Source: an uncultured bacterium (GTDB taxonomy: Bacteria > CAIJMQ01). Taken from it: a stretch of DNA of 64,000 nucleotides. Below the pieces are notes generated by a model. That model saw only the letters and a program-made list of their open reading frames with translations, ran no database searches and had not been told where the DNA came from. The stretch covers positions 695-64,694 of the forward strand of contig CAIJMQ010000121.1 of assembly GCA_903821905.1 (NCBI GenBank). Direction: 5' to 3'. Made by a program: the position numbers and the translations under genes. How positions within the stretch are numbered: position 1 is the stretch's first letter; each line of letters starts with the position of its first letter. Below are positions 37,057-64,000 of the stretch, piece after piece.

Positions 37057-37956
37057 TTAAGAGAAAAGAGTTGGTTCAACTTCTTTCTTAAATTTTTTAA
37101 ATTCTAAGCCTTCAAATATTCTGTTCAACAAAGCCCAGTCTGGAATTGTAACCATTAATTCATCGACACTTACTTCTACAGGTACGTTTTTATCCAAAAT
37201 GAGCAGTTTTTTATTATTTAATGCGATGTTGAAATTGTTCTCTAAACTGGTTCCTACTTTTTTGTTTTTAATTCTCTCTTTAGAGGAAACCACATCTTCC
37301 AGAAAGCCAAACTCATTGAGAAGTTCCTTAGCAGTTTTTTCCCCTATTCCAGGAACTCCGGCTATATTATCTACCGAATCACCAATTAATGCAAGTAGGT
37401 CCGGAATTTTTTCCGGCAAGACACCGAATTTTTCTCTAACTTCCAAAGGCCCAAACAAATTATCTTCTTTAGAAGAGTTTAAAACATTTATTTTATCAGT
37501 AACTATCTGGAGCATGTCTTTATCTGAAGTAACAATTAGTATCTTATCAAAATCATCTCTAAACTTAGAAGCCAAGGTTGCAAGTATGTCATCGGCTTCG
37601 TACCCGTCCGCCTGCAAACATTTAAGATGAAAAGCATCCAGTATCTGGCTAATTCGTGGCAGTTGGCGATGTAAATCATCTGGCATTGGAGGACGATTTT
37701 TCTTGTAGTCGGCAAACTGATAATGTCTGAAAGTAGGAGTTTTGCTGTCAAAACAAATTGCCATATATTTTACATTCTTCTTATTAAGTAGCGACAACAG
37801 CATTTTTGTGAACCCATAAATAGCGCCTGTAGGAAAACCTTCTTTCGTAGTAAATTTAGGTAAAGCATGAAAAGCACGATAAATATAGGAACTTGCATCC
37901 AACAGATAAAGTTCTTTAATTGATTTGGTCACTATCAAACTTCTAACTTTTTGCAA
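37057..37956 (-). CDS. Stand-alone 5'-3' exonuclease / flap endonuclease (Pol I N-terminal domain only)
   Basis: 299 aa. LLDASSYIYRAFHALP, acidic-cluster motifs (EADD, DKD) and H3TH GVPGIGEKTAKELL. No 3'-5' exonuclease or polymerase domain follows; the ORF ends after ~300 aa. Confidence 0.85.
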   Translation of the reverse strand: MQKVRSLIVTKSIKELYLLDASSYIYRAFHALPKFTTKEGFPTGAIYGFTKMLLSLLNKKNVKYMAICFDSKTPTFRHYQFADYKKNRPPMPDDLHRQLPRISQILDAFHLKCLQADGYEADDILATLASKFRDDFDKILIVTSDKDMLQIVTDKINVLNSSKEDNLFGPLEVREKFGVLPEKIPDLLALIGDSVDNIAGVPGIGEKTAKELLNEFGFLEDVVSSKERIKNKKVGTSLENNFNIALNNKKLLILDKNVPVEVSVDELMVTIPDWALLNRIFEGLEFKKFKKEVEPTLFS

Positions 37957-39151
37957 AGAAGGGGTTACCTTGCGAATCTAAAACATGTACGGTTATGAAA
38001 ATCAATAGATGTTGCCTATCTACGCTGTTTATTTTTTCCTGGAAAAAAGCTTTCCCGATAATAGGTATATCACCAAGGAAAGGAACTTTAGAAATTAATT
38101 CTGTGGTTGCCTCATTCATCAATCCCCCAAGAACAATAGTAGTTCCATCATGTACATTAACATTGGTAGTAGCATCTCTACTGGTAAAAGTTGGCGGGGT
38201 AATTGTAATCGGCGCTTGACCAGTTATTTGAGATATAATGTAAGAAGTTGTTCCTGCCTGCATTTCACTTACTACAGGTTGCAAGAATAATCTGACAGAT
38301 TGTGTAGGACGAATTACAGTAGGACTTACATATAAAACTATCCCAACATCGCGGTCTATAAAAGTCCAGTCATAAGTAGTAGTTGTTGTTGCTGTTGTCG
38401 TTGTTGTGCCCTCAGTGGCTGCTGAAGAAACATCAACACTATCTACATACCGAACGGTCGTCACAAATCTTACATCTGCCGGTTCATTATTCAAAGTTGT
38501 TACTGTAGGTGCAGATAGAAATTTGGTATCTGCTCTGGTAGAAAGCATACGAAGTGTTGCTTGAAGCTGTGGATAATTAAAAGCTTGATAGGTCAGTTGT
38601 AAACCACCAGTACTACTACCAGTAGGAGCTGATACGCCCGATGTAATAGAACCACTAATTGTGTCGTAAGACCAGGCCGTACCCGCAATACCAGAATATC
38701 TCTCGTCTCTTCCAACAGGATTTGCCCAACTAAAAGATAAGGGGGTTACATCACCCCATTCCAACCCCAAATCCCTGAATGTTTTTTCTCCGACAATAAT
38801 AAATTTTGCCTCTATAGCAACTTGAGGGGGAACAGTAAGGTCTTTTAGAAATTCATCTATCTTTTTTAAATTTGATGGGGTATTCCTAACTATTAATTGA
38901 TTCTGACCTGGGAGAAGTGTAATTGAAGAACCTGGAGGTTGAGGAACAAGTTGATTAAGAACCGCTACAATATCCATGTCTGAGGTTCCAGCACCTGTTC
39001 CTGTAGCAGCTGTAGTTCCAGCAGCTGTAGTTCCAGCTGCAGCAGGTGCCGCTGCTCCTCCACCAACACCTACTTCTTGACTAAAAGTTTTTTCCATAGG
39101 AAGAATTATCAAAAAAGCTATTATAAATGTTAATGCTAACTTTCTATTCAT
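37943..39151 (-). CDS. Secretin (GspD/PilQ family) core: one N-type domain plus the secretin domain, lacking its own N0 domain
   Basis: 402 aa. Signal peptide and Gly/Ala/Thr-rich linker. N-domain end LIVRNTPSNLKKIDEFLKDLTVPPQVAIEAKFI. Secretin domain motifs LSAPTVTTLNNEPA, GIVLYVSPTV, TIVLGGLM, VPFLGDIPIIGKAFF, LLIFITVHV. Confidence 0.85.
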   Translation of the reverse strand: MNRKLALTFIIAFLIILPMEKTFSQEVGVGGGAAAPAAAGTTAAGTTAATGTGAGTSDMDIVAVLNQLVPQPPGSSITLLPGQNQLIVRNTPSNLKKIDEFLKDLTVPPQVAIEAKFIIVGEKTFRDLGLEWGDVTPLSFSWANPVGRDERYSGIAGTAWSYDTISGSITSGVSAPTGSSTGGLQLTYQAFNYPQLQATLRMLSTRADTKFLSAPTVTTLNNEPADVRFVTTVRYVDSVDVSSAATEGTTTTTATTTTTYDWTFIDRDVGIVLYVSPTVIRPTQSVRLFLQPVVSEMQAGTTSYIISQITGQAPITITPPTFTSRDATTNVNVHDGTTIVLGGLMNEATTELISKVPFLGDIPIIGKAFFQEKINSVDRQHLLIFITVHVLDSQGNPFFAKS

Positions 39152-39226
39152 TGGTTATACCCCTCTGTTTATTTTTTTCCTTTTTATTAAATTTTTTATA
39201 ATTATTTATATATTTATAACAGCAAA

Positions 39227-40861
39227 TTAATTTCCACTGCTACTGTTGCTGCTTCCTCCGGAACTATTCGATTGTCCGAATGTAATTGTGCTAAGCTGCA
39301 TTGGAGTTGGTTGAATCTGCCCGTTAATAGTTGAACCAGACTGTAAGTCAAAAATTCTAGTTTCCAATGCTTCCAATGGGACATTATCAAGCCTATCTCT
39401 TGTGGATATCCAAATAACGTTGGGGTATATTTCATAGTCTAAACCTTTTGGACGAAGTACCAAGGATAAAACATCAGAAAGTGGCATATCACGCAATGAA
39501 GCAGTAATATTATAGGTTTTCTCTGGGGTTGCAGTGGTTGTTGCTCCTACTGCTCCACCAACTACTCCAGCACCACCTCTTGCTGCACCACCACCTCCAC
39601 CAGCTCCAGGCGGTCCACCAACTCCAGCACCACCTCCTGCTGCTACACCTCCAACCCCAGCTGTAGGTGCTGCTTCAAATATAGCTTCATCAATCATCAT
39701 ATTTATACCGCTCTGTTTTGAAAGAAATAATATAACAGATCTTAAATCAGCACCAGTAAATTCCAGAGAAACCTTTTTCTCTTTGGCTTTCTTTGTGATT
39801 TCTTCTATAGCAAGAGCTTCTTCATCTTCTACTGTTTTTCCCTTCTTTTCTTCTTTTACTCCACCAACAACAGGCACATAAGCTTCATCAACTTTTAACC
39901 ATTTCTTTTCTCTTTCGGCTTTCTCTTTTTCTACATCGACTATACGTTCTGCTTTTGCCTTAGAAACTTCTGCTTGAGAAATAAGTATTTCTATACCTGG
40001 GTAATCCTCTTTTTCTTTTAAAACTTGTCCCCATATTTCAATTGCCTTATCGTATTCTTTATCTCTTAAATATTCCTTCCCTTTATTTACCATATTTTCT
40101 AGTTTCTCGGCATTATCTGTTTTCGCTCCAAACAATTTCATTTCTTCTGCAAGCTCCATATACTTTATTGCTTCTGTATCTGTGGGATTTATAGCAAGTA
40201 TTTTTTTGAGTTCATTAATAGATTCGTCATATTGTTTACTGCGATAGTATCTTTTAGCATTATCCCAATATTCTCTCATTTGTCCTGTTCTTTCTAATGT
40301 TTCTTTGATGTCTGCGTTCTTCTTGGATTTCTCCATTGCAATTTGGGTTTTTTCTATATATGCAATAGCATCTTTGTCCTTGGGATTAATTACAAGGATT
40401 TTATTAAACTCAAAAAGCGCTTCTTCATATTTCTCCTGTTCATAATAGGAGGTACCTTTATCTATATATGTTTTCTTTTTCTGTTCCTTTTCAAATTGAA
40501 TAATGTTTTGTTTCAATTCTGCTGTCTTCTTGGATTCTTCTTCACCTTTAATTATTGTATCTTCTGTCAATGCTTTCTTTTTATTGGCCATCTCATCGCT
40601 GCGAGCTATTATGCCCTTAATTTCCTCTGTCATTCCCGCAGGTGCGATTTTCAAAGCTTCTTCAAATTTTGACTTAGCTTGTTCAAATGCATTCAACTGT
40701 AAATATTCAAAACCTTCATCCAAAAGATTTTTCACCTGTTCCAGGTTTTCAGTTTCAGACTGCTGTTTTGTCTCTTCTTGTGCATAGACATAAATTGTAC
40801 CTGAAAACATCAGAAGTACAAGAAAACACCCCACAAATCTTTTATTTTTTAGGATATTCAT
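39227..40861 (-). CDS. Secreted TPR protein fused to a secretin-type N0 domain (the missing N-terminus of the downstream secretin)
   Basis: 544 aa. Signal peptide, ~6 TPR-like units and an E/K-rich segment. Then VSLEFTGADLRSVILFLSKQSGINMMIDE ...[~55-aa Gly/Ala tract]... YNITASLRDMPLSDVLSLVLRPKGLDYEIYPNVIWISTRDRL, which is the N0 pattern of GspD/PilQ. Confidence 0.7.
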   Translation of the reverse strand: MNILKNKRFVGCFLVLLMFSGTIYVYAQEETKQQSETENLEQVKNLLDEGFEYLQLNAFEQAKSKFEEALKIAPAGMTEEIKGIIARSDEMANKKKALTEDTIIKGEEESKKTAELKQNIIQFEKEQKKKTYIDKGTSYYEQEKYEEALFEFNKILVINPKDKDAIAYIEKTQIAMEKSKKNADIKETLERTGQMREYWDNAKRYYRSKQYDESINELKKILAINPTDTEAIKYMELAEEMKLFGAKTDNAEKLENMVNKGKEYLRDKEYDKAIEIWGQVLKEKEDYPGIEILISQAEVSKAKAERIVDVEKEKAEREKKWLKVDEAYVPVVGGVKEEKKGKTVEDEEALAIEEITKKAKEKKVSLEFTGADLRSVILFLSKQSGINMMIDEAIFEAAPTAGVGGVAAGGGAGVGGPPGAGGGGGAARGGAGVVGGAVGATTTATPEKTYNITASLRDMPLSDVLSLVLRPKGLDYEIYPNVIWISTRDRLDNVPLEALETRIFDLQSGSTINGQIQPTPMQLSTITFGQSNSSGGSSNSSSGN

Positions 40862-40864: not shown

Positions 40865-42928
40865 TCAATTCTCCCTTTCCAAGATTTTCTCACTTTCATT
40901 TATTTTATTTTTAATTTGTTCCATTAACTGGGTTATGCTCTTTTCTAATTCGCTGTTTCCAAGTTCTTCAGTTACCTTCATTTTTGCACTATCTTCTTTT
41001 ATGTTATTACTCTCTATGAATTGATGACTTTCCTGAGATTGCAATTCAACTCTTCTTGGTAAATCATTCTTGTGAATAAAAGAGTTTACATCGCTTTCTA
41101 TAGTTTTTACTACTTGTTCCTTTATCTGGGGAGAAGCCATTCCCACCGCATCCTTGAAAATTGATTCTGCTTTATCAAATTGTCCTTCTGCTAAATATTT
41201 CATTCCATTATCTATTACTACCTTTACCTTATCAAATTGTTGTTTGTTTTTATACTCGTCTCTTGCTTTTTCCACCAAATCAAGAGAAGAAAGTGCTTCC
41301 GAATACGTTGGATTCAAATTTAATACTTCTTCAAACTTTGCTTTAGCTAAGTCAAATTTATTATCTTTCAAATACTCTTTACCTTCTGTCATCATTGTCT
41401 GCAATCTGGACTGATTAGCTTCTTCTTGGGATTTATCAAGCCGTTTTAACCATTCTTCGGCTTCAGAATAATCCGGTTTAACAGATAATGCCTTTTCAAA
41501 ATTAGTTCTTGCTTTAGCATATTGATTCTTATTAAAATTATCTACGCCGCTAGCTATATATACATCCGCTTGTTGTTGGAGCTTTCTATTATATATATTT
41601 TGTTTTGTCTTATCAATGTCATCCAGAAGAGTTTGAATCTCAGTTTGCTTATCTCCTGATGAAGCTATTTTCAACGCTTTTCTGAAAATTGCATCTGCTT
41701 TATCCAACTGTTCTGCTTCTAAATATTTTTTACCTTCAGTTATTAATCCTTCTATAACTCCTTTACTCTCATAATCCTTTTTTGCTTGTTCGGTTTCAGA
41801 TAAATACTGCAGTACAAGTTCATTCCCTGGTCTAATTTGTAACGCCTCTAAAAATTTTTTCTTAGCTTCTTCAAAATTATTTGCAGTTAGGTATTCTTTT
41901 CCCCGTTTTATTAATTCGCCCAACTTGTTCTCTTCAATCTGTTGTTTTGCTTCGGATACAATATTTTCTATTCTTCCAAGGTTTGCGCCTGCCTGATATT
42001 TTTGTTTCAATTCAGGGACAGAAGCAAGTAATGATTCTATTTCCCCCCTTCTCTTTTTCTCCTGGGGTAACAAAAGTTTAAGAGCTTCATTAAGACCAGT
42101 TTCTGCTTCTTCAAACCTGCCCATCTTGAGATTGTTTTTTCCTTCTTCTATTTTACTATCAATATTTGCAAGTAAATCTTTATCTTCTTTTGCCTGTCTT
42201 AATTTTTCAATCTTCTCTAAGTAACCCTGAGCTTTACTGTTGTCGGGTTGTAGTGTCAATACTTCCTTTAATCCTTTCTCTGCTTCATCAAATGCCTCCA
42301 TATTAATATTATTGCTTGCTTCTTCTAAAAGGTTCGATATGTGTTCAGCATTCATGCGGCGGCGTGCATTGCCTACTCGTACAAGTCCATCTTTAGCTTT
42401 ACGATTATCTGGAAAAATATCAAGCGCTTTATTAAAACTGGATTCTGCCCCATCAAGATTACTTGATTTTAAATATTCAAATCCTTGCATGATATAATTT
42501 TCAGATTCTTCTTTAGATTTTTTACCTTCATTTTTCTCTTGAAGTATTGCTATTTCTTTTAAAGATTGGGAAATTTTAATAGATATTTTCCCAAGAGAAG
42601 ATGCTTCTCGGTAATAGATTTTAGCACTATTGTTTTTATCTTCAGAAACGAGGTTCTGCGCTTTATTTCCATATGAAGAAATTTGCTCGTTTACCAAATT
42701 CAAAGTGTTTTCTAATTCTTTCTTGGCTTTATCTGGTTCCTTGTTTTTGATAAATAGATTTGCTGCTTCAATAGACTTTTTTGTTTGTTCTTCAAAATTA
42801 CGGATTAACGATATTTCTTCAGAACTAATACCGTTATCTGAATTATTACAATAAATATTTATTACTGGAAATAACCCAGACAAAACAAATAAAAATAAAA
42901 TTATCAAAAACGTTTTTTTAAAGTTCAT
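40865..42928 (-). CDS. Large TPR / coiled-coil repeat protein with an N-terminal signal or anchor
   Basis: 687 aa. Many units of the form G..YL....F..A...F..AL...P.N..A. Hydrophobic N-terminus. ATGA overlap with the upstream PilP-like gene. Confidence 0.7.
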   Translation of the reverse strand: MNFKKTFLIILFLFVLSGLFPVINIYCNNSDNGISSEEISLIRNFEEQTKKSIEAANLFIKNKEPDKAKKELENTLNLVNEQISSYGNKAQNLVSEDKNNSAKIYYREASSLGKISIKISQSLKEIAILQEKNEGKKSKEESENYIMQGFEYLKSSNLDGAESSFNKALDIFPDNRKAKDGLVRVGNARRRMNAEHISNLLEEASNNINMEAFDEAEKGLKEVLTLQPDNSKAQGYLEKIEKLRQAKEDKDLLANIDSKIEEGKNNLKMGRFEEAETGLNEALKLLLPQEKKRRGEIESLLASVPELKQKYQAGANLGRIENIVSEAKQQIEENKLGELIKRGKEYLTANNFEEAKKKFLEALQIRPGNELVLQYLSETEQAKKDYESKGVIEGLITEGKKYLEAEQLDKADAIFRKALKIASSGDKQTEIQTLLDDIDKTKQNIYNRKLQQQADVYIASGVDNFNKNQYAKARTNFEKALSVKPDYSEAEEWLKRLDKSQEEANQSRLQTMMTEGKEYLKDNKFDLAKAKFEEVLNLNPTYSEALSSLDLVEKARDEYKNKQQFDKVKVVIDNGMKYLAEGQFDKAESIFKDAVGMASPQIKEQVVKTIESDVNSFIHKNDLPRRVELQSQESHQFIESNNIKEDSAKMKVTEELGNSELEKSITQLMEQIKNKINESEKILEREN

Positions 42929-43650
42929 TCTTTTATACGTTGGGACTCGCCCCCACTCTTCAATTCGTATTTACCAGAATCTGATCTGGAGATTATAACT
43001 TTATTTTCATCAATACTCAATATCTTCCAACCTTCAACTTCATCTCCTGCGTTTGCAAAATAGGTCTTTTTTGTACTATCGTTTTGCAACATTGCTTGAA
43101 ACCCTTTCTCTATAGGCATAATACCTGTTAATTTGAAAGGCATTATTACAATCGAAGGTATCAATCGATATTGCTTCACTTCGTCACTAAGTATAACAAC
43201 ATCCCGAGTAATAGACACCACTGTAAAATTCTCCACCTTGTCGCCGACTTTAGCTTTATAAGTATTGCCTGTTTGAGAATTTCCAAAAGTAGCGGTAAGA
43301 ATACCTTCGGCATCAGAAACTACTCCAGTACATCCCAAATTCATCTGAGATGTAGCCGACCCTGATTTTTTAACATCCGTTGGAAAAAACATGTTTTTAT
43401 CAATTAATGGCTGGTATTGTGAAAAATCTTTCTTAATTAAGTAGGTACCAAAGTTCGGTTCATAAGGAGGAGGGGGATTAAGAGTTGTCCCTCCAGTTGG
43501 TTGTATTTTTATTTTGAAATCCTCAATTGCCTTGTTTCTATCTACCCCAGAAAATAAACGGACTGCTGTAATTATCAATATAACTAAAAGGAGACCAAGA
43601 ACTAATTTTTCATAATTTTCTTTAATCCACACTAATAGTTTATTAGACAT
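42925..43650 (-). CDS. Bitopic membrane protein with two PilP / GspC-HR-like beta domains
   Basis: 241 aa. N-terminal TM (LVLGLLLVILIITAV). Two similar segments, TYKAKVGDKVENFTVVSITRDVVILSDEVKQYRL and TYFANAGDEVEGWKILSIDENKVIISRSDSGKYEL, fit the PilP/GspC homology-region pattern (..vGd.v.gw.v.sI....v.l....g....l). Confidence 0.5.
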   Translation of the reverse strand: MSNKLLVWIKENYEKLVLGLLLVILIITAVRLFSGVDRNKAIEDFKIKIQPTGGTTLNPPPPYEPNFGTYLIKKDFSQYQPLIDKNMFFPTDVKKSGSATSQMNLGCTGVVSDAEGILTATFGNSQTGNTYKAKVGDKVENFTVVSITRDVVILSDEVKQYRLIPSIVIMPFKLTGIMPIEKGFQAMLQNDSTKKTYFANAGDEVEGWKILSIDENKVIISRSDSGKYELKSGGESQRIKE

Positions 43651-43695: not shown

Positions 43696-44526
43696 TCACG
43701 ATTTCCCCCATCTGATTACGGATAGTCTTAATTGTACCTGTATCTTTTTTCCCCCTACAGATCCAGTTTTAACAGTTCCCAATGTTTCCGATCTGGTTTG
43801 ATCTTGAAAACGTCCTGCCCGAGGATCCATTGAAGCATCAGATATTCCTGTCATTTCTTTGCCTTCTATTATCGACGAGAGGGAAAAGTTCTTTACTATA
43901 AAAAATCCCTGGTCGGTATTTTCCAATGTAAATAAAAGTTTTGCTAAAGAAAGGATATCGCATTTCACACTCAGGATTAATGGTATCTCCTCATACATGT
44001 CTGTTTTCGTTATTTCCCCCAACCCTATACTGTCTATTGAACTCACTCCTGTATCAATTAACAAATTAACAATCATTTCAGTAAGGTATAGATTTTTTAT
44101 TAGTTGGGGTGCTCCTTGGTCGGTCGGTAGACTATTATCTAATCCTAAACCTTCAGTAGTAATTTCGATTCCTTTTTCTTTAGCTTTAGTTCCAATCCGC
44201 TCTTTTGTATTTTTTAATTCTTCCATAAAAAACAGAGATAAATTAACACCTTCCGGAATAGATGACTCTTTTGCCACAGGTAAACTCTCTCTAATTTTTT
44301 TATATTTATCTGCTAATACAATGTTGTCTTTTTCCATGGCACTAATCAATTCGTCGGAAGGAAGATTGCCTGCGGAATAAATTTGTTGAAGCGTACTCTC
44401 TTTTTCTTTAAGCATTTTATTAGTTTCATTGTTATTTTTTAATAATAAATATCCAAACAAAGAAAATAATAAGACTATAATAAGCAAGGTTATTATATAT
44501 GGCAATCCTTGTTTTAACATAGTCAC
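43696..44526 (-). CDS. PilO / GspM-like bitopic inner-membrane protein (module B)
   Basis: 276 aa. TM (LPYIITLLIIVLLFSLFGYLLL), a coiled-coil and a periplasmic domain. Its position after the PilMN fusion (ATGA overlap) supports the call. Confidence 0.55.
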   Translation of the reverse strand: MTMLKQGLPYIITLLIIVLLFSLFGYLLLKNNNETNKMLKEKESTLQQIYSAGNLPSDELISAMEKDNIVLADKYKKIRESLPVAKESSIPEGVNLSLFFMEELKNTKERIGTKAKEKGIEITTEGLGLDNSLPTDQGAPQLIKNLYLTEMIVNLLIDTGVSSIDSIGLGEITKTDMYEEIPLILSVKCDILSLAKLLFTLENTDQGFFIVKNFSLSSIIEGKEMTGISDASMDPRAGRFQDQTRSETLGTVKTGSVGGKKIQVQLRLSVIRWGKS

Positions 44527-46394
44527 TTCCCAATAACTATTTCAAGTGTAAATTTAACTTCTTCTTCTTTATCAACTGTTGCTTCTGCTGCTGATGTAGT
44601 CCCTCTGGCTCCTTTGACCGGTCCCCTAATTCCTTCTGTTGTAGCAGATCGACCTCCCGAGCTATCTGATGTAGATACTACAGAAGTTATTCCTACAGTT
44701 TTAAATAAAGGTGAAGTCTTTAACTTGTTAATATACTCATCAACCGTAGGATAAGAAGCAGTAGTCCCACTTAAAGATATTTTATCTGTTAATAATATGT
44801 TTCCATTTCCTTCTGGTAAGGGAGTTCCCGTATTCGGATTTTTTCCTCCAGTTGGCATAGTTCTGGGGTCAATAGGAACACCCTTAGAATTTCCTTCGGT
44901 ATTCATTGCGGGCACTCTTCTATCTTCGCTTGGATTTGTTCTAACAGCACCTCTTACTCCTGTTGTTTCTCTCCCTGTTTCCAATGCTCCTGTAGTTATC
45001 TCCGTTATAGATATACTTGAAGGAGTAAGTTTAGAAATCTCAAGAAGTATTTTGGACAACTGCGATTTTTGTTTTAGAATCACTTCAATATTTTGAAATT
45101 TACTGATAATCTGTTGTCTCTCATTCTTCAATTCTTCAGCCTTAGACACATAGGGCTTGTAATTTTTAAGAATCGGCTCAATCATATCAATTTTTTCTTT
45201 TGTTAAATTATAGCTTCTTGTACCCAAAACCAATATGATCCAACCTATCAAAAATATCATAACAAAAGAAGAAATAAAGTATAACCTTTTATCCGCCAAC
45301 TGTCTCTTGCTTAGTAGTTTCGGAGGCAATAGATTTATCTCAATTGAAAAATGCTTCAATGCCCTAAGAGCTAATCCAGTAACAACACAAAAATTACTTG
45401 CACTATCGGTTAGCTTAGCAGGGTCATAAGCTATTTTATTAAACGGGTTAATTTCTTTCACTTCAACTCTGAACGAATTTTGCAGGAGGTTTATAAGATT
45501 AACATCTTGGGGAAATTCACCCGATATGTATATATATTGAAAGTGAGTTACTTTTTCTACTTGAGATAAATAGTAATTTGTAGTCCTCTTAATTTCTGCT
45601 ACTAAATCTTCCCAAACAGAAAGAATTAAAGGAGAAATATCTTTCACGCCTGCTTCCGACGTTACGTCGGAGCGGGCATACTTTTCAAGAATTTCTTCAG
45701 CTTTTTCAATATCCACTCCTTTTGACTCGGCGATTTTCTTAAGTATATTCTTCTTACCTATAGGCACTGCTCTGGTAAATGCCATTTCTCCCTTATTTTC
45801 AATAGAGACGTCAGTATAACTAAACCCGAAATTCACTAAAATTCCAACTTTTTCCTTAGGTAACAAATCATTAAAAACAAGACAGTTATGCAAAGCAAGT
45901 GATGAAGTGTCTACAACGTCAGGAATTTTATTTATGGAATTCTGCAAAACTTTGAGCAAATCTTCCACAAAACTTTGTTTTATTGCTGCCATTAGTACTA
46001 TTACGGGGCCCGGGACTTTACTAACAGGAGAAACTACTTGATAGTCCCATATAACTTCATTTAAAGAGAAAGGTACCTGCTGTTGAACTTCAAAAGATAT
46101 TACTTGTTTTAATTTGGAATAGGATACCGGGGGAAGTTTCACTTTTCTTACAAAACTTATCTGCCCACCAACACCTAAAGAAATCTCATCTTTGGCAGAA
46201 GCCAATCCTTCAAAAATTTTAATTATATTAGCAGCTAATAATTTTTTATCGTCTTCTTTATTACCTAAAGGAAGTTTTATTGACCTTGCCCCAACCAAAA
46301 CCACGCCATTAGGGCCTTGGGCAAGTTTTGCTAAATTTATGCGGTCATCCCTGATTTCTATTCCTATACCTGATTTAGCTCTTCTTTTGGGCAT
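44523..46394 (-). CDS. PilM-PilN fusion (GspL-like) assembly protein with a low-complexity periplasmic extension (module B)
   Basis: 623 aa. N-terminal actin-like PilM pattern (GIGIEIRDDRINLAKL..., SFVRKVKLPP, VDTSSLAL). TM LYFISSFVMIFLIGWIILVL. PilN-like coiled-coil and core, interrupted by Pro/Thr/Gly-rich tracts. Confidence 0.7.
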   Translation of the reverse strand: MPKRRAKSGIGIEIRDDRINLAKLAQGPNGVVLVGARSIKLPLGNKEDDKKLLAANIIKIFEGLASAKDEISLGVGGQISFVRKVKLPPVSYSKLKQVISFEVQQQVPFSLNEVIWDYQVVSPVSKVPGPVIVLMAAIKQSFVEDLLKVLQNSINKIPDVVDTSSLALHNCLVFNDLLPKEKVGILVNFGFSYTDVSIENKGEMAFTRAVPIGKKNILKKIAESKGVDIEKAEEILEKYARSDVTSEAGVKDISPLILSVWEDLVAEIKRTTNYYLSQVEKVTHFQYIYISGEFPQDVNLINLLQNSFRVEVKEINPFNKIAYDPAKLTDSASNFCVVTGLALRALKHFSIEINLLPPKLLSKRQLADKRLYFISSFVMIFLIGWIILVLGTRSYNLTKEKIDMIEPILKNYKPYVSKAEELKNERQQIISKFQNIEVILKQKSQLSKILLEISKLTPSSISITEITTGALETGRETTGVRGAVRTNPSEDRRVPAMNTEGNSKGVPIDPRTMPTGGKNPNTGTPLPEGNGNILLTDKISLSGTTASYPTVDEYINKLKTSPLFKTVGITSVVSTSDSSGGRSATTEGIRGPVKGARGTTSAAEATVDKEEEVKFTLEIVIGK

Positions 46395-46431
46395 TTTTCT
46401 TATATTATATTAATTTAGAACAAATCACGTG

Positions 46432-57309: not shown

Positions 57310-60300
57310 CTATCTCTCCATTACCACTATATATTTCTTCTCGCCTAAAATCTCGTATGTTTTATGATCATGACTAACAGTTCCATTATCGCTTTCTCTA
57401 AGCGCCTGCCCCTGCGATATTATCGTGAAAACTTTGGATTTGGTTGTTATGAGATTTGAGATTTTGGAGAAAGTATTTAAATCAATAGCCTTATGACCGG
57501 AGCTACCTTCTACATCCAAAATTTCCCCGATGGTGTGGAATGGGCTATTATTCTTTCTATGAGCTACTATAGAATCAGCAATATCTTTATCTATTCCCGG
57601 CAATGCCTGCAACACCACTGTATCAGCCGTGTTAATGTTTATTACTCCGTAGGTTTTGTATTCAGGAGCTAAAATGGCAGCGTCAAAATAAAGAGAAATG
57701 ACATCAGTATCAGGCGGGGCAATCTCCAACTGGAGAAATTCACCATCACTTCCGCTAGGGATTTTTCCTCCGATAGTTATCTGCCCAAAACAGGCAATAT
57801 TATCTTCTGAAAAAGACACAACTCTGGTTTCGCCGGATGGCTCAACTCCTGTTGTCACTGTTACCAGCATTGTATCTGAAACATCAATGCTATGTCTGGA
57901 CACTTTGCCTGAAATATAGAGAGTATAAATACCGGTATCAGGATTAATTCGCTGATTTATACCCCATGTCCAAATACCAGGACTACCACCCAGAGCGGAA
58001 ATAGAATAAAAGGGTGTCAAAAATGTATCACCAGCTGGTTGTTCAGGATCCCATCCCACCCCAGAATAATATGTAGAATTCTCCGCTTCCAATCTCTTCG
58101 CAGATACTGTAATTTTATCGGCAAGCGCTCTGATTTCATCTATATAGTCATTGTTGCTATTAGATAAATAACCTAAACGAGACCATTCATTCGTAGTATC
58201 GCATATGCTTACTTCCTTTATATCCCCTATTGTAGCAAACGGCAAATTTCGTATTTCCATATTAACATCCAAGGCTTTGTTATATATGCTATTTTCCCCA
58301 CCCGGAGTTCCGCCTTTAATACTTGGCACTTCCGAATCAGCATTATTAAGATGCCAAAAATCATCTACTCCATCGCCATCCAAATCATAAATAGCAGTCG
58401 GGTCATTTTTCTCCAGAGCTATAAATCCATACACAGGAGTAATAGTGTCAACTCCCGGAATATTTTGAATATAACAGACCTGATTTATATCCTTTGCCCG
58501 ATAATTGACCTGCGCCACGATTTTTCTGTCAGCCAATGGGCCTTTCCACAATGTAACAGCCTTAAGTGGAAAGAATATGTAATAGTTGGATGGCACTGAA
58601 ATGCTAATGAGATCCCCATCCCAAGCCCACTTGGTATTTATAGTTATTTTATTTGAAGTATTACTTATAATCTGTCGTGTAATCTGTCGTAGTTCAGCCC
58701 CACCACTTGTCGTATTAACTGTCATATTAGCCGTAATAGTTGCGCCTTTCCATTGGTCAACATCCCAAGTTTTGGTAACTTCAGTTAAGGTATTGTTATC
58801 CACGCCCGTAGGAATTCCAGAATCTTCCCACTGTTTAGGAATAATCGGGGAATCTTCAAAGATACCGCCCCTAAGAACAATTGTATCTCCTAAAACATTT
58901 TCTGCAATATTTACCGGGGAAGTAGAAAGTTGAAGCGCCCGAACGTGCTTATCAAGGTCAACTCCGGGCCAAGTATTCTTAAAAGCTATGTTGTCAATTC
59001 CTGTCCCAAACCTAGCGCCTAGTTTCACATCAGGGTCCAGCATAAATTCTAAATTATCATCCCTGTCAACCGTCAATACCATATAATCTTTTGCTTCAAT
59101 AATAGTATCATTAGGAATTCTTCCCACAAAACCGCCTGAAGTAGTAAGTTCCCATCCGCCAATCTCTATATCTGTATCGGATATATTCACAAGCTCAACA
59201 TATTCGCAGTCAGGTTGTTGTGAGAATTGGATATAACCAAGTCGGGCTCCCGTTTTTATAATGTGATAGGAACAACCGATATTAATGGTCGGGCTCCAAT
59301 TGCCATCTATCTCTACCGTATCGGAGGTATTATTAGTAATTGTGTGAGTCTGCCTTACTCCTGTACCGTCCATAATTTTAATAGTATCACCTACCCATTC
59401 GCCAGGTGTCCAACTATTTACTCCGGTTTTGGAACCATCCGTCAACCTGTTAATATCTGTGTCCGTAGCAGTTCCTTCTTCATCAAAAAGGTCAGGAGAT
59501 GTTTTCAATACTACCGTGTAGTCACCGGGAACAAGAGGATGTCCATATTCCGGATTACTTAGCAGTTTTGGCACCCCCAAATCTTCCAGTAACCAACCGC
59601 CCATGTTATGCCCGCCAACATTATCCTCTGCTAAAACAGTATCATTTCGATCATCATTATTATATATATAAACACCAAAACTATTATCTGTTGAAGGATA
59701 AACACAATCATCATAAGAAAGAACTCTGACCCTGTAGAAACCGCCACGTTCAAGATGAATTTTAGCGGTTATATCGGCGCCGGGCATTTTAGAATAAATG
59801 CCGGTATCAGGCGTATCTAAATACCAATTTGTTATCCCTAATTGGTTTGGTAGTGTTCCCAATGGGTTCTGATTCTTGAAAAGGTCTTTCGCTTCCCATT
59901 GATATGCAGGCTTGACCATAATTTCATTTATCCGTATTCCTTCAATACCGCGCGCTATTGTTGGTGTTTCGGCTCCGGTTTCATCGGTAATTTTAAGAAA
60001 AGTGGAGACATTATCGGTATCGGCATAATCTATCGTATTAACTGCACATTGAGCCGCTAATCGTTTGATGTAATCATAGGTATAATCGGGAGAAGAACCA
60101 ATCAAACCTTCCCAAGCATCATACATAACTGTATAAAGAGCCGTTGCATCTTTAACAAGATTTATATTCATCCTCAAAAACCCCGAATCATTTGTATTTT
60201 CATCTGAGGAATAGACGGTGATATAGGGGTCAATATCACCTAATGCAACACCAGCATCAGCTATTTCTTCAACAACTATAAATGGGTCATCGTAGTTAGC

Positions 60301-61215
60301 CTCACCAGCATCACGAATACCATTAGGAATAATGGTATCCTTAAAATAAGGATCCCAAGCAACAAATTCATATGGGTCATCTACCCCCTCGCCTGGTTCA
60401 TCACATCCGGCATCTCCAATATATTCACCATGGTCGGGTCTACCATTACCGTTAAAATCCATTGTTGTAACATCCCAATCAGCGTCGTTGTCTATTCCGT
60501 CATATTCTAAAATAATACTGTCGGCATCGTCATCAATATTTGGTTGCCCTGCCTGTGGAAACGGTGGTGGTGTTACAATACCATCTAAACCATAACGACC
60601 ACGATTTGTACCATGTACCACGCCATCTGCTAAATCCTGAGGATTGCCTAAACCCCAACCTAATTGGGTGTTACCTGCATTGAAAAATCTTTCCAAACTT
60701 ATTTCAAATGGCTTCCATCCTTGAACAGCACCTCTGTTCCCTGCAGTATTTATATTTATTTTACTTGATTCATCGATTATTAGGACTGCATAACGACCAA
60801 CTGTATCGCTGCCGGTATCATCGGTAACATATATCCATTTGGACTCGTTACCACCAGTCCCATTATTTGTTACAGTTGTGTCATCTAAATTAACTTCCGA
60901 ACCGCCGAAAACTGAAATATTAGAAACAGGAGTCGTGTCATACCCCCAATTTTCGCTGTATGCATCATATCCTGTATCGCCTCCGTCTGATTTAAGGACT
61001 GCAATTGCGTGGTCTATTCCCGATTTTGCGATGTAGGATGCCTTCAAACTGTTTACGTAATTGAATGCGGCTTTTTCTTCCATCCGCATTGTATACATAA
61101 ATGAGACACCTATGGCTGAAAGAATAGCAATAATCGCAACAATAATAATAAGAGCCATACCGGATTTATTTTTAGAATCTGGAATAGTATCTTGAATTTT
61201 GAATTTATTTCTCAT
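57310..61215 (-). CDS. Giant (1301 aa) GspK/PilX-like minor pseudopilin with a ~1000-aa insertion including a lamin-tail-domain-like module and acidic calcium-binding-like loops (module B)
   Basis: N-terminus KNKSG/MALIIIVAIIAILSAIGVSF is a pilin-like helix without Glu+5, as in GspK. KININTAGNRG near the N-terminal part. C-terminus VININTADTVVLQALPGIDKDIADSIVAHR...SKVFTIISQGQAL is the GspK HhH end. The insert contains RINEIMVKP ... EYVELVNISDTDIEIGGWEL (LTD-like) and D-rich loops (DIDDDADS, DGIDNDADWD, DLDGDGVDD). ATGA overlap with the J-like gene upstream. Confidence 0.7.
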   Translation of the reverse strand: MRNKFKIQDTIPDSKNKSGMALIIIVAIIAILSAIGVSFMYTMRMEEKAAFNYVNSLKASYIAKSGIDHAIAVLKSDGGDTGYDAYSENWGYDTTPVSNISVFGGSEVNLDDTTVTNNGTGGNESKWIYVTDDTGSDTVGRYAVLIIDESSKININTAGNRGAVQGWKPFEISLERFFNAGNTQLGWGLGNPQDLADGVVHGTNRGRYGLDGIVTPPPFPQAGQPNIDDDADSIILEYDGIDNDADWDVTTMDFNGNGRPDHGEYIGDAGCDEPGEGVDDPYEFVAWDPYFKDTIIPNGIRDAGEANYDDPFIVVEEIADAGVALGDIDPYITVYSSDENTNDSGFLRMNINLVKDATALYTVMYDAWEGLIGSSPDYTYDYIKRLAAQCAVNTIDYADTDNVSTFLKITDETGAETPTIARGIEGIRINEIMVKPAYQWEAKDLFKNQNPLGTLPNQLGITNWYLDTPDTGIYSKMPGADITAKIHLERGGFYRVRVLSYDDCVYPSTDNSFGVYIYNNDDRNDTVLAEDNVGGHNMGGWLLEDLGVPKLLSNPEYGHPLVPGDYTVVLKTSPDLFDEEGTATDTDINRLTDGSKTGVNSWTPGEWVGDTIKIMDGTGVRQTHTITNNTSDTVEIDGNWSPTINIGCSYHIIKTGARLGYIQFSQQPDCEYVELVNISDTDIEIGGWELTTSGGFVGRIPNDTIIEAKDYMVLTVDRDDNLEFMLDPDVKLGARFGTGIDNIAFKNTWPGVDLDKHVRALQLSTSPVNIAENVLGDTIVLRGGIFEDSPIIPKQWEDSGIPTGVDNNTLTEVTKTWDVDQWKGATITANMTVNTTSGGAELRQITRQIISNTSNKITINTKWAWDGDLISISVPSNYYIFFPLKAVTLWKGPLADRKIVAQVNYRAKDINQVCYIQNIPGVDTITPVYGFIALEKNDPTAIYDLDGDGVDDFWHLNNADSEVPSIKGGTPGGENSIYNKALDVNMEIRNLPFATIGDIKEVSICDTTNEWSRLGYLSNSNNDYIDEIRALADKITVSAKRLEAENSTYYSGVGWDPEQPAGDTFLTPFYSISALGGSPGIWTWGINQRINPDTGIYTLYISGKVSRHSIDVSDTMLVTVTTGVEPSGETRVVSFSEDNIACFGQITIGGKIPSGSDGEFLQLEIAPPDTDVISLYFDAAILAPEYKTYGVININTADTVVLQALPGIDKDIADSIVAHRKNNSPFHTIGEILDVEGSSGHKAIDLNTFSKISNLITTKSKVFTIISQGQALRESDNGTVSHDHKTYEILGEKKYIVVMER

Positions 61216-61877
61216 TGTCTGCTCCCCGGTATATTTACAACAGTAATGAAAGTGTCATGTCTTATATCGTCTTTCTCCGGCTCATATTGCATAACAAGAG
61301 TAATTTTTACTGCTTTAGGTAAAGCATAAATTCCCGGGGAAGTTGATATTGTAGCTCTCTCGAACTTGGAGGTAGTTTTATCCCAATATTCAAATTTAAG
61401 GTCACTCACACTACCAATTAATGCATCACTATCTTGATTCCCGTGTCTGGTATTAAAATCAAAATCAGTTGAATTCGAAGTATAATGTCTCATAACAGTA
61501 TCCGCCTTATTATCACCTGCAGTACCATTCAACCAATACCCCACTTCACATAAATCGCCTTTTTCATTAGGGATAATAAAATAAAATTCATCTCCTATAC
61601 TATTTGTTCGGTCTCCACTAGCCACATTCCAAAGTTCGTAATGAGCTCCTATCCTTTCATCTACCATTGCTTGTTCTATTTCTCTTGACATCATATCAAG
61701 AGCAGCTCGTGCTTCTGAATAAATAAGCGCTTTGTTGGAGCCCCTTCTCTGAGAAAACAAACTGCCCTGAAACACCGAAAATACGGTTGAAGATATAACC
61801 GCCAAAATAGCAACAACAACCATTACCTCTATAAGAGTCAATCCCATTGCGGATTTAAAAATTTTTAATTTATTCAT
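61212..61877 (-). CDS. Minor pseudopilin, GspJ-like (module B)
   Basis: 221 aa. Prepilin motif MNKLKIFKSAMG/LTLIEVMVVVAILAV. Position immediately before the K-like gene, with 4-nt overlaps on both sides. Confidence 0.65.
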   Translation of the reverse strand: MNKLKIFKSAMGLTLIEVMVVVAILAVISSTVFSVFQGSLFSQRRGSNKALIYSEARAALDMMSREIEQAMVDERIGAHYELWNVASGDRTNSIGDEFYFIIPNEKGDLCEVGYWLNGTAGDNKADTVMRHYTSNSTDFDFNTRHGNQDSDALIGSVSDLKFEYWDKTTSKFERATISTSPGIYALPKAVKITLVMQYEPEKDDIRHDTFITVVNIPGSRQ

Positions 61878-62425
61878 CGGTATTTCTCATAAAAAGGGTT
61901 TGAAATGTAAGTGATAAATGTATCGGCTCTTTCCTTATCAGCTTCCATCCAGTAAACAGCGACATAAACTTTTTGGCTTAACAAAACATCGTCCCAATCT
62001 CCAGGTCGTCCAATAATTCCATTTCCGTTTGCATCCCAATCCTCAACTTTAATATATACATCCATCCCAGTAGTATCTCTATAGTCATATTCAATAAAAG
62101 GGAAATGATTAGTGTAATCTATTTTTGCATCTGTATCAGTAAATGGACCTGTATCTTGGCGTGCCAACTCAAAATATCCTACTCCATCAACATTGGTTGA
62201 AGCTAGATCATCGACTGTATCATAAATAGATGCGGCTGTTTTTATATTTTCTATTACTCTCTGGGCAAGAATACTTGCTGCTGAAAAGTTGGATGCTCTG
62301 CGGGAAGCTTTTAATCCGATAGGAAAAAGATTCGCCAATGCAACCAAAGCTATGGATAGGATAGCAAGAGATATGGCAATTTCAAGAAGAGTCATACCCT
62401 TATTATTAATTCTTAACTTTTTCAT
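61874..62425 (-). CDS. Minor pseudopilin, GspI-like (module B)
   Basis: 183 aa. Prepilin motif MKKLRINNKG/MTLLEIAISLAILS. Confidence 0.6.
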   Translation of the reverse strand: MKKLRINNKGMTLLEIAISLAILSIALVALANLFPIGLKASRRASNFSAASILAQRVIENIKTAASIYDTVDDLASTNVDGVGYFELARQDTGPFTDTDAKIDYTNHFPFIEYDYRDTTGMDVYIKVEDWDANGNGIIGRPGDWDDVLLSQKVYVAVYWMEADKERADTFITYISNPFYEKYR

Positions 62426-62943: not shown

Positions 62944-62946
62944 AAT

Positions 62947-63591
62947 CTATTTCGCTTCTCTCCAACTCTTATTTACATCCCAGTTGTTTATGTCGTCGTT
63001 ATGATCATGGTGAGCTGTAGGAAAAGTAGATTCATAATTTGCCGAATCCCCACCAGTTGAATTTGAAGTTTTATTATCTCTCCCCATGGAGTAAATGTAA
63101 TAACTAAGATTTCTAGCTGGTGCTACCCAACTACCATCGCCAGCTTTTGGGTAATCTGTGCCATCAACCTGATTACATGCAGGAGGGCTACCAGGACAGA
63201 TATCTCTAGGATGTTCATTTTTAAGATATACATAATCTTGTTTCCATGGGTCTTGCTCTATACCTTTTATGTATGGACCATGCCAATTCTTAGCTTCAGG
63301 AGCGTTTACATCTACTCCTGTACCTGTATCTACTCCTGTTAACCAATCTTTTAACTCATGAAGTGTTGTGGGCGGATATCTTCCTGTATCCGTTTCATAC
63401 ATAGCAAGAGCGCCTTCTATGGCAGCGATGTCTGCTTCTGCTTTGGTTATTTTTGCTTTTTCTATTCTACCTGCTAAATTGGGGACCATTATTCCGGCAA
63501 GCAGAACTATAATAGCGATTACGACCATCAATTCCATAAGGGTGAAACCACCGTTTCTCATTGAAGATTCTGGAATCTGGAATTTTTTCAT
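62947..63591 (-). CDS. GspG-type major pseudopilin with an internal Cys-pair insertion and a His/Asp-rich C-terminus (module B)
   Basis: 214 aa. MKKFQIPESSMRNGG/FTLMELMVVIAIIVLLAGIMVPNL. GspG-like WHGPYIKG..QDPWKQDYVY ... YYIYSMGRD ... DDINNWD. Insertion NEHPRDICPGSPPACNQVDGTDYPKAGDG. Confidence 0.75.
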   Translation of the reverse strand: MKKFQIPESSMRNGGFTLMELMVVIAIIVLLAGIMVPNLAGRIEKAKITKAEADIAAIEGALAMYETDTGRYPPTTLHELKDWLTGVDTGTGVDVNAPEAKNWHGPYIKGIEQDPWKQDYVYLKNEHPRDICPGSPPACNQVDGTDYPKAGDGSWVAPARNLSYYIYSMGRDNKTSNSTGGDSANYESTFPTAHHDHNDDINNWDVNKSWREAK

Positions 63592-63603
63592 ATTTTCTCC
63601 TCC

Positions 63604-64000
63604 TTATAAATTACCGAAAGTTATTGTCTTTGAAACTTTTACTGTCGTTCCATCGCTACCAGTAGCTGTGATAGTGTAAGAACCTGTTCCCGGAACAATA
63701 GAATAACTGCCTCCCCAAGGAGTTGTTGACACCTGATCACTGGAGATATAAGGACCTTGTCCGGTGGCAGTCCACAATTCACTCAAACTAGTTGGAAGTC
63801 TACCGTTATCAATCTGGAAAAGATTGACTGATTTGATAAGGACATCAATATCTGCAGTTGCCTTAGCTATTCTTCCCCTTTCTACGTTTTTGGCTACATT
63901 AGGTATCATTACTGCAGCAAGAATCATGATGATCGCAATTACAGCCATAAGTTCAATAAGGGTAAAGCCCATTTTCGTTATTGGTAATTTAACATCTTTC
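63604..64000 (-). CDS. Type IV pilin / GspG-like pseudopilin; true start probably beyond the right window edge (module B)
   Basis: The track ORF starts MG/FTLIELMAVIAIIMILAAV, which would leave only a 2-aa leader. The frame is open upstream to nt 63997 (...KDVKLPIRKMG/FTLIEL), which fits a normal prepilin leader whose Met lies outside the window. Confidence 0.75.
   Translation of the reverse strand, partial: KDVKLPITKMGFTLIELMAVIAIIMILAAVMIPNVAKNVERGRIAKATADIDVLIKSVNLFQIDNGRLPTSLSELWTATGQGPYISSDQVSTTPWGGSYSIVPGTGSYTITATGSDGTTVKVSKTITFGNL

Follow-up and report, generated by a model that had tools for sequence, protein, structure and literature searches.

The stretch of 64,000 nucleotides (nt) analysed here as a whole, called the window, is taken from contig CAIJMQ010000121.1 (positions 695 to 64,694) of an uncultured bacterium and carries a type IV filament locus at 37943-64000. 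The locus comprises five short prepilin genes, a gene for a GspK/PilK-type minor pilin of 1301 amino acids (aa), a gene for a secreted protein of 3569 aa, and genes for a PilMNOP-like alignment complex, two tetratricopeptide repeat (TPR) proteins and a secretin. An annotation made earlier from the letters alone (the original prediction) had already described a type IV filament locus, and this is borne out by the Pfam and NCBIfam matches of the pilins, PilMN and the secretin. Homologues of the 1301-aa protein are mostly named Candidatus Omnitrophota or Omnitrophica by their sources, and the host is classed, by sequence kinship, as a Candidatus Omnitrophota bacterium. Related contigs and homologues compared with the window bear the identifiers L001, L002 and so on to L027, P0001 (a contig) and P0007. 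The features of the locus are as follows.

63604..64000 (-): pilin 1, GspG-like, probable major pilin; T2SSG 5.9e-11 and N_methyl
62947..63591 (-): pilin 2, 214 aa, GspG-like; T2SSG 1.5e-16, NCBIfam GspG 90.9 bits
62422..62943 (-): pilin 3, 173 aa, GspH/FimU-like minor pilin; N_methyl 3.2e-7
61874..62425 (-): pilin 4, 183 aa, PilV/GspI-like minor pilin; N_methyl, PilV 8.4e-9
61212..61877 (-): pilin 5, 221 aa, GspJ/PilW-like minor pilin; N_methyl, weak T2SSJ
57310..61215 (-): K-LTD, 1301-aa GspK/PilK-type minor pilin; T2SSK, HHH_3, LTD
46568..57277 (-): 3569-aa secreted multidomain protein; Sec signal, Pfam domains
46571..46612 (-): last 14 codons of the 3569-aa gene, SPDNLYKYFREIGE, candidate "plug" beta-strand
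46395..46567: 173-nt intergenic region, the sole long gap; likely start of the pilMN-secretin transcription unit
44523..46394 (-): PilM-PilN fusion, 623 aa; PilM_2 7.9e-29, PilN 6.6e-6
43696..44526 (-): PilO-like protein, 276 aa; Amuc_1100_fam 1.2e-10 (below cut-off)
42925..43650 (-): PilP/GspC-HR-like protein, two tandem HR-type domains, 241 aa
40865..42928 (-): TPR protein, 687 aa, possible PilF/PilW/Tgl-like pilotin or scaffold; TPR families
39227..40861 (-): TPR and STN (secretin N0) protein, 544 aa, own signal peptide; N-terminal half of the split secretin
37943..39151 (-): 402-aa short secretin with a signal peptide of its own, the secretin core and one Secretin_N; Secretin 5.2e-35

The genes, 13 of 13, lie on the minus strand at coordinates that agree with those of the original prediction. 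The tight spacing described there (4-nt overlaps or gaps below 80 nt) is found throughout, as overlaps of 4 nt or gaps of 3-75 nt, except for the 173 nt between the 3569-aa gene and pilMN. An assembly chimera was considered for the two giant genes and is ruled out, because their internal repeats are just 60-90% identical and orthologues of both genes are collinear in other samples.

Prepilins and the enlarged K pilin

In five open reading frames (ORFs) the N-terminus is a class III signal with Glu at +5 (G/FTLIEL, G/FTLMEL, G/FSFMEL, G/MTLLEI and G/LTLIEV), and all five match Pfam N_methyl. Six consecutive class III or prepilin-type N-termini had been predicted; all are present, the sixth (K-type) being the 1301-aa protein's own. 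The smaller giant of the original prediction is thus not a separate protein, it is the K pilin itself. Both giant genes are real and belong to the system. Pilin 1 is cut by the window end, its 5' end lying ~8 nt beyond; an identical contig of 1692 bp (L001) gives the complete protein of 134 aa with a 14-residue leader, MKLKDVKLPITKMG, before /FTLIEL. Pilins 1 and 2 match Pfam T2SSG with 42.8 and 60.9 bits (cut-off 21), and on the NCBIfam GspG model (TIGR01710, cut-off 88.85 bits) pilin 2 is just over with 90.9 bits and pilin 1 under with 60.2 bits. Such a match does not discriminate a type II secretion system (T2SS) from a type IV pilus (T4P), because the T2SSG fold is also common among non-proteobacterial T4P pilins (PMC5131608). 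Among NCBIfam models, pilin 3 weakly matches Verru_Chthon cassette protein D, XpsH and GspH; pilin 4 matches PilV (8.4e-9), Verru_Chthon cassette protein B and GspI (7.9e-4); pilin 5 matches GspJ (1.6e-8) and Verru_Chthon cassette protein C (6.1e-9). The T2SS-like pilin set of the original prediction stands as regards the G-like matches and the H-I-J-K order, not as regards the machine as a whole, and the order itself is not T2SS-specific, since such minor pilins are common to T2SS and type IVa pili (T4aP). Pilin 2 has a long His- and Trp-rich C-terminal extension (~60 codons, ...TFPTAHHDHNDDINNWDVNKSWREAK); L002 preserves the Trp- and Arg-rich end of this extension (...NNWDVIKNWRQVY).

The 1301-aa protein begins with SG/MALIII, a prepilin-type N-terminus without Glu5. 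Pfam places T2SSK/HHH_3 at residues 1191-1242 and the lamin-tail domain (LTD) at 668-719; T2SSK scores 32.6 bits (cut-off 24.2), NCBIfam T2SS_GspK 51.7 bits (under its cut-off of 130 bits), and a PDB sequence search with the protein returned helix-hairpin-helix (HhH) and ComEA matches only. Kinship with GspK is brought out by hhalign, where the K family matches the window's own 352-aa GspK with a probability of 98.3% over the N-terminal pilin part and the first alpha-domain, and of 97.1% in the stretch that holds the HhH and the terminal hairpin. In an AlphaFold2 (AF2) model of the 1054-aa homologue P0007 (predicted local distance difference test, pLDDT, 80.3; predicted template-modelling score, pTM, 0.81) alpha1 is 62 residues long and is accompanied by a small sheet and a helical part; three regions of beta-sandwich come next (~363-577, 608-690 and 800-950), and the model closes with the HhH helices and a final beta-hairpin. 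The best domain-sized Foldseek matches of this family model are of CBM6 type (probability 1.0, TM-score ~0.6 on the target); the whole-chain search gave beta-sandwich and carbohydrate-binding module (CBM) matches and no GspK. The 1301-aa protein is read from these comparisons as a GspK fold interrupted by ~850 aa of inserted beta-sandwich modules of CBM6-like and lamin-tail type.

This K-LTD family is large. LTD and HHH_3/T2SSK are shared by 60 homologues of 750-1530 aa, and an exhaustive profile search yielded 583 clusters at 50% identity with E <= 1e-30. The C-terminus ...EKKxxVxER ends the window protein and 47 of its 47 closest homologues, whereas the window's canonical GspK runs 13 residues further (NQSDVKVKFWKEN). 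Family representatives that reach the profile end (n=169) are tail-less in 105 cases, and 58 bear tails of 8-30 residues in cis, for example SPIKILSWKEITE and SPVKILYYREISSD. We infer that the K-LTD family is without the terminal beta-strand of canonical GspK. In full-text literature searches no paper was found that ties the lamin-tail domain to GspK or to minor pilins.

Compared with T2SS GspK (ETEC GspK and P. aeruginosa XcpX; PDB 3CI0, 5VTM), the K protein has the same N-terminus without Glu5, the same place after I and J and a homologous pilin part and HhH alpha-domain; it is, however, ~4 times longer by its beta-sandwich insertions, has no C-terminal strand in cis and stands in the context of PilMNOP and PilT, not of GspC/L/M. 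PilX/PilK, at ~200 aa, are far from the 1301 aa and the inserted binding modules found here. Pilins or pilin-like tip subunits with grafted binding modules are known in Streptococcus sanguinis PilB/PilC, Thermus ComZ and Caulobacter CpaL/TadG, and the middle region of CpaL is likewise inserted between a pilin-like domain and a terminal strand. Unlike in those proteins, the insert of the K-LTD family is of another family and size (LTD and CBM-like, 600-1200 aa), and the strand that CpaL keeps in cis is missing. A further resemblance is to the Verru_Chthon cassette (TIGR02596, TIGR02598, TIGR02599, TIGR02600; order D-B-C-A), in which three prepilin-type proteins are followed by a protein of ~1300 aa, and whose D, B, C and A proteins are matched at their N-termini by the window's H-, I-, J- and K-like proteins respectively. 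Nevertheless, only the N-terminal 50-65 residues align and the scores are far below cut-offs; for the K protein on protein A (TIGR02600) the score is 39.9 bits against a cut-off of 332.3, with only residues 19-81 aligned. We know of no characterised function for this cassette, and full-text literature searches found no paper that mentions it.

Two further features of the family may be recorded. The nearly invariant acidic motif DGIDNDADGxIDExxEGxDEPxEF (residues ~225-280 of the window protein) is similar to the calcium-binding loops known from thrombospondin type 3 repeats and falls within the GspK-homologous N-terminal region. Beside the K-LTD gene of several related loci, not of the window, stand small genes for four-helix-bundle proteins (23S_rRNA_IVP / bAvd, TIGR02436), at 14248-14613 in L002, at 7639-8004 and 11325-11663 in L027, and also on the P0001 contig. 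A diversity-generating retroelement was considered and dropped, as the window ORFs scanned contain no reverse transcriptase and only diverged repeats are present.

The 3569-aa protein and its counterparts

The gene of the 3569-aa protein starts 32 nt after that of K, a position kept in its orthologues. The product has a Sec signal peptide (...SYAFS/DA) and the Pfam domains DUF2341, Laminin_G_3, NHL, BNR_2 and Y_Y_Y, arranged as two DUF2341-LamG units, propellers of Kelch/NHL type and BNR/Asp-box repeats. The same position is taken by orthologues with lengths of 2109, 2448 and no less than 2034 aa. Their N-terminal 710 aa and C-terminal 950 aa are conserved at 41-52% identity and the repeat-rich middle varies, so that the total ranges from 2109 to 3569 aa; fixed conserved ends with a variable middle would suit docking ends that hold a variable binding array. 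The last residues, NLYKYFREIGE, are conserved in four orthologues and resemble both the cis tails of tail-bearing K members (such as SPVKILYYREISSD) and the canonical GspK end VKVKFWKEN.

The layout is not confined to the giants. Where K is tail-less, the large gene that comes next codes for a protein with a Sec signal in 9 of 11 loci; such partners, of 589 to 3569 aa, recur across Omnitrophota, with synteny in at least nine loci, whereas none of five tail-bearing K genes has a partner of this kind downstream. The layout is lineage-typical and not a one-off. Partner C-termini could be read in seven cases (the window and six loci), and in proteins of unrelated sizes and domains they are alike, a proline-rich linker leading into an aromatic/basic strand whose end is acidic:

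window and L006: DUF2341/LamG/NHL giants, ...NLYKYFR(E/D)I(G/E)E
L007: DUF2341/LamG/NHL giant, ...NLYKYSRGIEE
L027: 1157-aa LamG protein, ...RRFWTWEEGD
L003: 600-aa Ig-like protein, ...PFKFWKEE
L012: 601-aa Ig-like protein, ...PFRFWKEE
L025: 589-aa Ig-like protein, ...PVKYRLEE

In a nearest-neighbour test against the cis tails, partner C-termini took ranks 4, 5, 21 and 23 among 616 ORF C-termini, which is moderately supportive.

These tails are of interest in view of how the beta-sheet of K-type pilins is completed. Its last strand is shown or modelled to be supplied in cis in T2SS GspK, ComG and CpaL, and in trans in T4aP, by the last 10-12 residues of PilY1/PilC, with MshQ predicted to do likewise (PMC13533445; 10.64898/2026.09.18.752573); in the systems studied an incomplete K sheet blocks pilus formation (PMC13533445). 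The gene order also has a counterpart, as PilY1/PilC follows pilVWX and MshQ (~1200 aa) follows mshDOP (PMC13533445); a large coding sequence after the minor pilins, for which the original prediction knew of no characterised case with ~14.6 kb, has a characterised precedent in these. Because a tail-less K and strand-like partner tails fit the 2026 "plug" model of PilY1, the giant is probably a tip adhesin like PilY1 or MshQ, by functional analogy and not by sequence homology.

The locus as a whole resembles T4aP with PilY1/PilC (Pseudomonas, Neisseria, Myxococcus) and the mannose-sensitive haemagglutinin (MSHA) pilus with MshD-O-P-Q (Vibrio cholerae) in that I, J and K are followed by a large Sec-exported non-pilin, that the K-type pilin is without a terminal beta-strand, and that the C-terminus of the large protein is a short tail under conservation. 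To this can be added a PilMNOP(Q), PilB, PilC and PilT machine, here partly known from orthologous loci, an extension ATPase with an MshEN domain as in MshE, and control of the pilins by sigma-54 and PilR/PilS. The differences are in the partner, which is without the PilY1 and MshQ signatures, has 3569 aa against ~1000-1500 aa and shares with MshQ no more than LamG as a domain type and the place of its gene, and in the GspG-like major pilin, the fused PilM-PilN and the split secretin with TPR proteins.

Alignment complex, split secretin and upstream machine

The PilM-PilN fusion scores 101.1 bits on PilM_2 (cut-off 27) and 26.5 bits on PilN (cut-off 22.8), its NCBIfam matches are Amuc_1101_fam (3.2e-48) and pilM (8.2e-36), and it has homologues in Omnitrophota, Kiritimatiellia and Verrucomicrobia. 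The 276-aa PilO-like protein itself gave no Pfam and no PDB sequence match; its orthologues match Pfam Amuc_1100 and keep the position after PilMN. In the 241-aa protein the two halves are 36% identical (E 3e-9), and GspC_delta (1.6e-6) and pilP_fam (2.9e-4) match under their cut-offs, in keeping, as are position and synteny, with the double PilP/GspC-HR-like protein predicted earlier. The 687-aa TPR protein likewise matches type_IV_pilW (3.6e-19) and the N-terminal region of Amuc_1098 (1.6e-15) under cut-off.

The secretin is encoded by two genes. The 544-aa protein carries a weak STN/N0 match at 452-486 (21.2 bits; Pfam cut-off 28.4) and matches of the PilQ N0 region at 451-495, and the 402-aa protein has Pfam Secretin with 121 bits (cut-off 27.5) and Secretin_N. 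The subtype models (GspD, MshL, Amuc_1098, PilQ) all remain under their cut-offs on the short protein, with GspD the best match at 2.2e-42. In L007 the separate gene and the signal peptide are conserved at 68% identity, and the short secretins of both loci (375-402 aa) have their own conserved signal peptide and ribosome-binding site. In more distant Omnitrophota (L009, L025, L026, L027) TPR, STN and Secretin stand on one protein of 851 to 1906 aa, the equivalent parts in L009 forming a single 851-aa protein. The split into an N0/TPR protein and a short pore protein, as originally predicted, is judged from these comparisons to be real, derived and conserved, and the pilMNOPQ-like order PilMN-O-P-secretin is likewise real and reproduced in L002/L007.

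Alignment complex and secretin together are assigned to the arrangement of the Planctomycetes-Verrucomicrobia-Chlamydiae (PVC) type. The Akkermansia cluster Amuc_1098-Amuc_1101 shares the PilM-PilN fusion, the PilO-like protein, a TPR-bearing secretin (Amuc_1098_fam 2.5e-39) and the gene order; nevertheless, the scores are far below the equivalog cut-offs, and here the secretin is in two polypeptides and the pilin/giant-tip module is adjacent. The TPR-STN-secretin products of L025 (16353-19120 and beyond) and L027 (18552 onward) measure 1906 and 1151 aa.

The 173-nt gap before pilMN holds sigma-70-like sites at 46460-46432 and 46433-46404, with no terminator called, and in L008 and L009 pilMN is unlinked from the pilin genes and adjoins F-type ATPase or unrelated genes; for both reasons pilMN is probably a transcription unit separate from the pilin-tip operon. 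In L008 (5128-9859) the F-type ATPase genes (OSCP, alpha, gamma, beta) stand directly upstream of pilMN, with a GspC and STN-secretin pair further upstream, an arrangement in line with the "symbiotic F-ATPase/T4aP" loci that Seymour et al. described in 2023 (PMC10066038).

Beyond nt 64000, where the original prediction would have sought the ATPases and the platform protein, orthologous loci show PilB, PilC and PilT. On contigs whose orthologues are 46-63% identical, the genes directly upstream of the pilins encode a PilT-type ATPase of 354-357 aa, an MshEN-domain ATPase of 569-571 aa (PilB), a GspF/PilC platform protein, and a PilR/PilS-like pair of sigma-54-dependent response regulator and histidine kinase. 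Upstream PilT-PilB-PilC-PilR-PilS genes are present in L002, L005, L006, L010, L027 and the P0001 contig. The first ATPase of L002 scores 452.7 bits on pilT_fam (NCBIfam PilT/PilU), over the cut-off of 319.1 bits; the second, with an MshE-type c-di-GMP-binding motif (MshEN domain), scores 637.7 bits on PilB against a cut-off of 675.65 and is just under the GspE cut-off too; the platform protein reaches ~360 bits. L002 and L007, which are from one sample, join via a broken giant gene and then reproduce the whole window order, including the genes for a 5'-3' exonuclease, CoaE and Rho that come after the secretin.

A sigma-54-type -24/-12 motif, TGGCATacaaaTTGC, ends 25 nt upstream of the pilin 1 ATG in L001, and TGGCAY-N5-TTGC ends ~25 nt before the first-pilin ATG in five loci (L001, L002, L005, L006, L010), against a chance expectation of 0.24 matches per 64 kb. 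Where small genes part K from the giant, as they do in L006 and L005, the motif stands before the giant gene too. The pilin-tip operon is accordingly predicted to be under control of PilR/PilS and sigma-54 type. From the upstream PilT, PilB, PilC and regulators of the orthologous loci and from the -24/-12 motif, the machine is therefore assigned to the type IVa pilus class, not to T2SS. The T2SS-like reading of the machine had to be given up in view of these loci and of a separate canonical set in the window. T4aP gene clusters were found with TXSScan in nearly all Omnitrophota, and host attachment was proposed (Seymour et al. 2023, PMC10066038).

That second, canonical T2SS-type set (module A) lies at 26672-32768 (-), with its pseudopilin and platform genes at 27.8-32.8 kb, and comprises GspG (1e-38), three minor pseudopilins, the 352-aa GspK, GspL_C and GspM; within the window, GspL_C and T2SSM matches are found only there, at 27772-29720, and no GspD, GspE or GspF adjoins the set. 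After it come a sigma-54-like motif, TGGCACgcaagTTGC, at 27546-27560 (-), and at 19679-27418 C25-peptidase-like genes (248 aa and 1226 aa), a 255-aa protein and an 835-aa fn3 protein. At the window start (1-about 2540, -) the edge cuts through an ORF whose product, at least 830 aa long, has a signal peptide and repeats of the right-handed beta-helix kind (...GGSGNHLNYNEANLNNIGIYL...). No Rfam families and no tRNAs were found in the window.

A proposed giant pilus tip and its alternatives

The best explanation of the locus, to which we give a probability of about 0.6, is a pilin-tip operon combined with an alignment-complex/secretin operon of a type IVa-class pilus, with a giant tip made of K and its partner. 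In the mechanism proposed, I-J-K, together with H, would cap the filament as in other type IV filaments, and the 1301-aa K pilin would display its inserted modules at the tip. PilMN, the PilO-like and double PilP-like proteins, the TPR proteins and the split secretin would form the conduit through the envelope. The tail NLYKYFREIGE would complete the K beta-sheet in trans, as modelled for PilY1/PilC and MshQ, and the lectin- and propeller-rich protein of ~390 kDa would thereby be anchored at the tip. The adhesive tip could then be cast by PilB-driven extension, and PilT, by retracting the pilus, would draw the very small cell against a glycan of the host or prey surface. The adhesion or prey/host-attachment filament with large binding modules that had been suggested at the outset is thus still the best reading, with the giants as putative parts of the system. 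A bolder version, in which the tip is a two-part structure of ~0.5 MDa with the strand in trans and with partners of 589-3569 aa interchanged across the phylum, is not homologous to PilY1 or MshQ, exceeds by far any other PilY1-type assembly known and catches and reels in host or prey, is put forward tentatively, at slightly under even odds.

Several points weigh against such a tip. A folded protein of ~390 kDa would have to pass through the secretin. Docking of the giant onto the K pilin is deduced from sequence, and the tests of the tails disagree: by nearest neighbour, the L006 and L007 orthologues of the giant reach no better than ranks 69 and 67 of 616, the tail of pilin 2 scores like the proposed plug tails (ranks 20 and 11 of 616), and the 58 cis tails, pooled in one hidden Markov model (HMM), were too varied for that model to recognise the partner tails, the giant's included. 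The tail-less K genes of L010 and L026 have no partner immediately downstream. No Pfam or NCBIfam match to the PilY1/PilC beta-propeller (IPR008707/PF05567) or to MshQ was found on the giant, whose propellers are of NHL and BNR type. The AF2 model of its C-terminal 951 aa, made from a two-sequence alignment, has pLDDT 34.9 and is unusable; a homology search with that segment gave one full-length relative, the rest being NHL-blade pieces only. As for the machine, no PilT, PilB or PilC is found within the window, whose end cuts the locus; that this organism has them is inferred from synteny and from the unshown ~7.6 kb that the 71,656-bp contig leaves outside the window, roughly as much as pilT to pilS would take up. 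No Peptidase_A24 match for the prepilin peptidase PilD, which may be encoded elsewhere in the genome, came up in the ORFs of the window that were scanned.

Some of these points would suit another arrangement, in which the enlarged K alone is the tip adhesin and the 3569-aa protein, an adhesin or glycan-binding protein in its own right that is secreted or sits on the surface, is co-regulated and co-located and does not dock. The giant's want of PilY1 or MshQ homology, the weak or mixed tail tests and the two tail-less K genes without an adjacent partner speak for it, as does L006, where unrelated genes lie between K and the giant and the latter has a promoter to itself. However, if no strand were supplied the K sheet would remain incomplete, which blocks pilus formation in the systems studied. 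Unrelated partners in different clades have moreover converged on similar C-terminal tails, tail-bearing K genes go without partners, and the synteny is kept in at least nine loci; on balance K as the sole adhesin is rather unlikely. Substrates of T2SS are often encoded beside their machine, and the locus might also be a T2SS with a short G-H-I-J-K pseudopilus as piston and the giant as a secreted substrate, not a pilus part. The Sec signal peptide of the giant, the T2SSG matches of both G-like pilins (with pilin 2 over the NCBIfam GspG cut-off), the GspK-like K protein and the GspD-like secretin agree with that. The inner-membrane parts, by contrast, are PilM/PilN/PilO-like, with no GspL or GspM matches in the filament locus (module B); orthologous loci have a PilT-family retraction ATPase over cut-off, the window has its separate canonical GspG-H-I-J-K-L-M set, and the K family is without the cis terminal strand of T2SS GspK. 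In favour of a T2SS there is also the connection of giant genes with T2SS-like loci that West-Roberts et al. made in Omnitrophota, with such a locus upstream of giant genes over 30,000 aa (2023, bioRxiv 10.1101/2023.11.21.568195); a 2026 preprint likewise ties these genes to Tad/T2SS-like loci (gspD/E/F, rcpC). That locus is from the same phylum, likewise unites very large genes with type IV filament genes and was proposed to act in prey adhesion. It is, however, Tad-like (gspD/E/F and rcpC), with a peptidyl-prolyl isomerase and many class III signal peptides, and its giants have transmembrane regions and SecA-like domains, whereas here the genes measure 3.9 and 10.7 kb, the larger has a plain Sec signal, and both stand inside a PilMNOPQ-type locus as K pilin and partner; rcpC, Rotamase_2 and SecA domains were not found in the window locus, where the largest product has 3569 aa. 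A T2SS is held to be improbable.

A DNA-uptake (competence) pilus, with the ComEA-like HhH of the K protein binding DNA at the tip, can also be thought of, in view of the HHH_3 and ComEA matches at residues 1191-1243, of a DprA gene that lies a few kb upstream in a single related locus (L025), and of Thermus ComZ as a precedent for a DNA receptor at the tip (PMC6561018). The HhH region is not specific to K-LTD, though, because an HhH/SAM-like subdomain is part of every GspK, and Pfam T2SSK spans the same residues. The inserted modules resemble carbohydrate-binding modules, the partner has lectin, propeller and Asp-box domains, and comEC and comF are not among the window genes, all of which makes competence a highly improbable function of this pilus.

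It can be said that the machine is of a known kind, already noted in Omnitrophota. What appears to be new is the enlarged, tail-less K-LTD family, its interchangeable plug-tailed partners, the size of the 3569-aa partner and the split secretin. If the giant-tip reading is true, the beta-strand-addition ("plug") rule would extend to the K-LTD family with its 583 clusters and to partners without PilY1 homology, and tip subunits would become predictable from a tail-less K pilin followed by a secreted protein with a matching tail. Secretin assembly, too, is touched by these data, since the division of the secretin between an N0/TPR protein and a short pore protein is conserved. Omnitrophota are abundant, uncultured and ultra-small bacteria, thought to be predators or parasites; for their attachment to other cells the locus offers a testable candidate, a retractile pilus whose tip may bear very large carbohydrate-binding modules.

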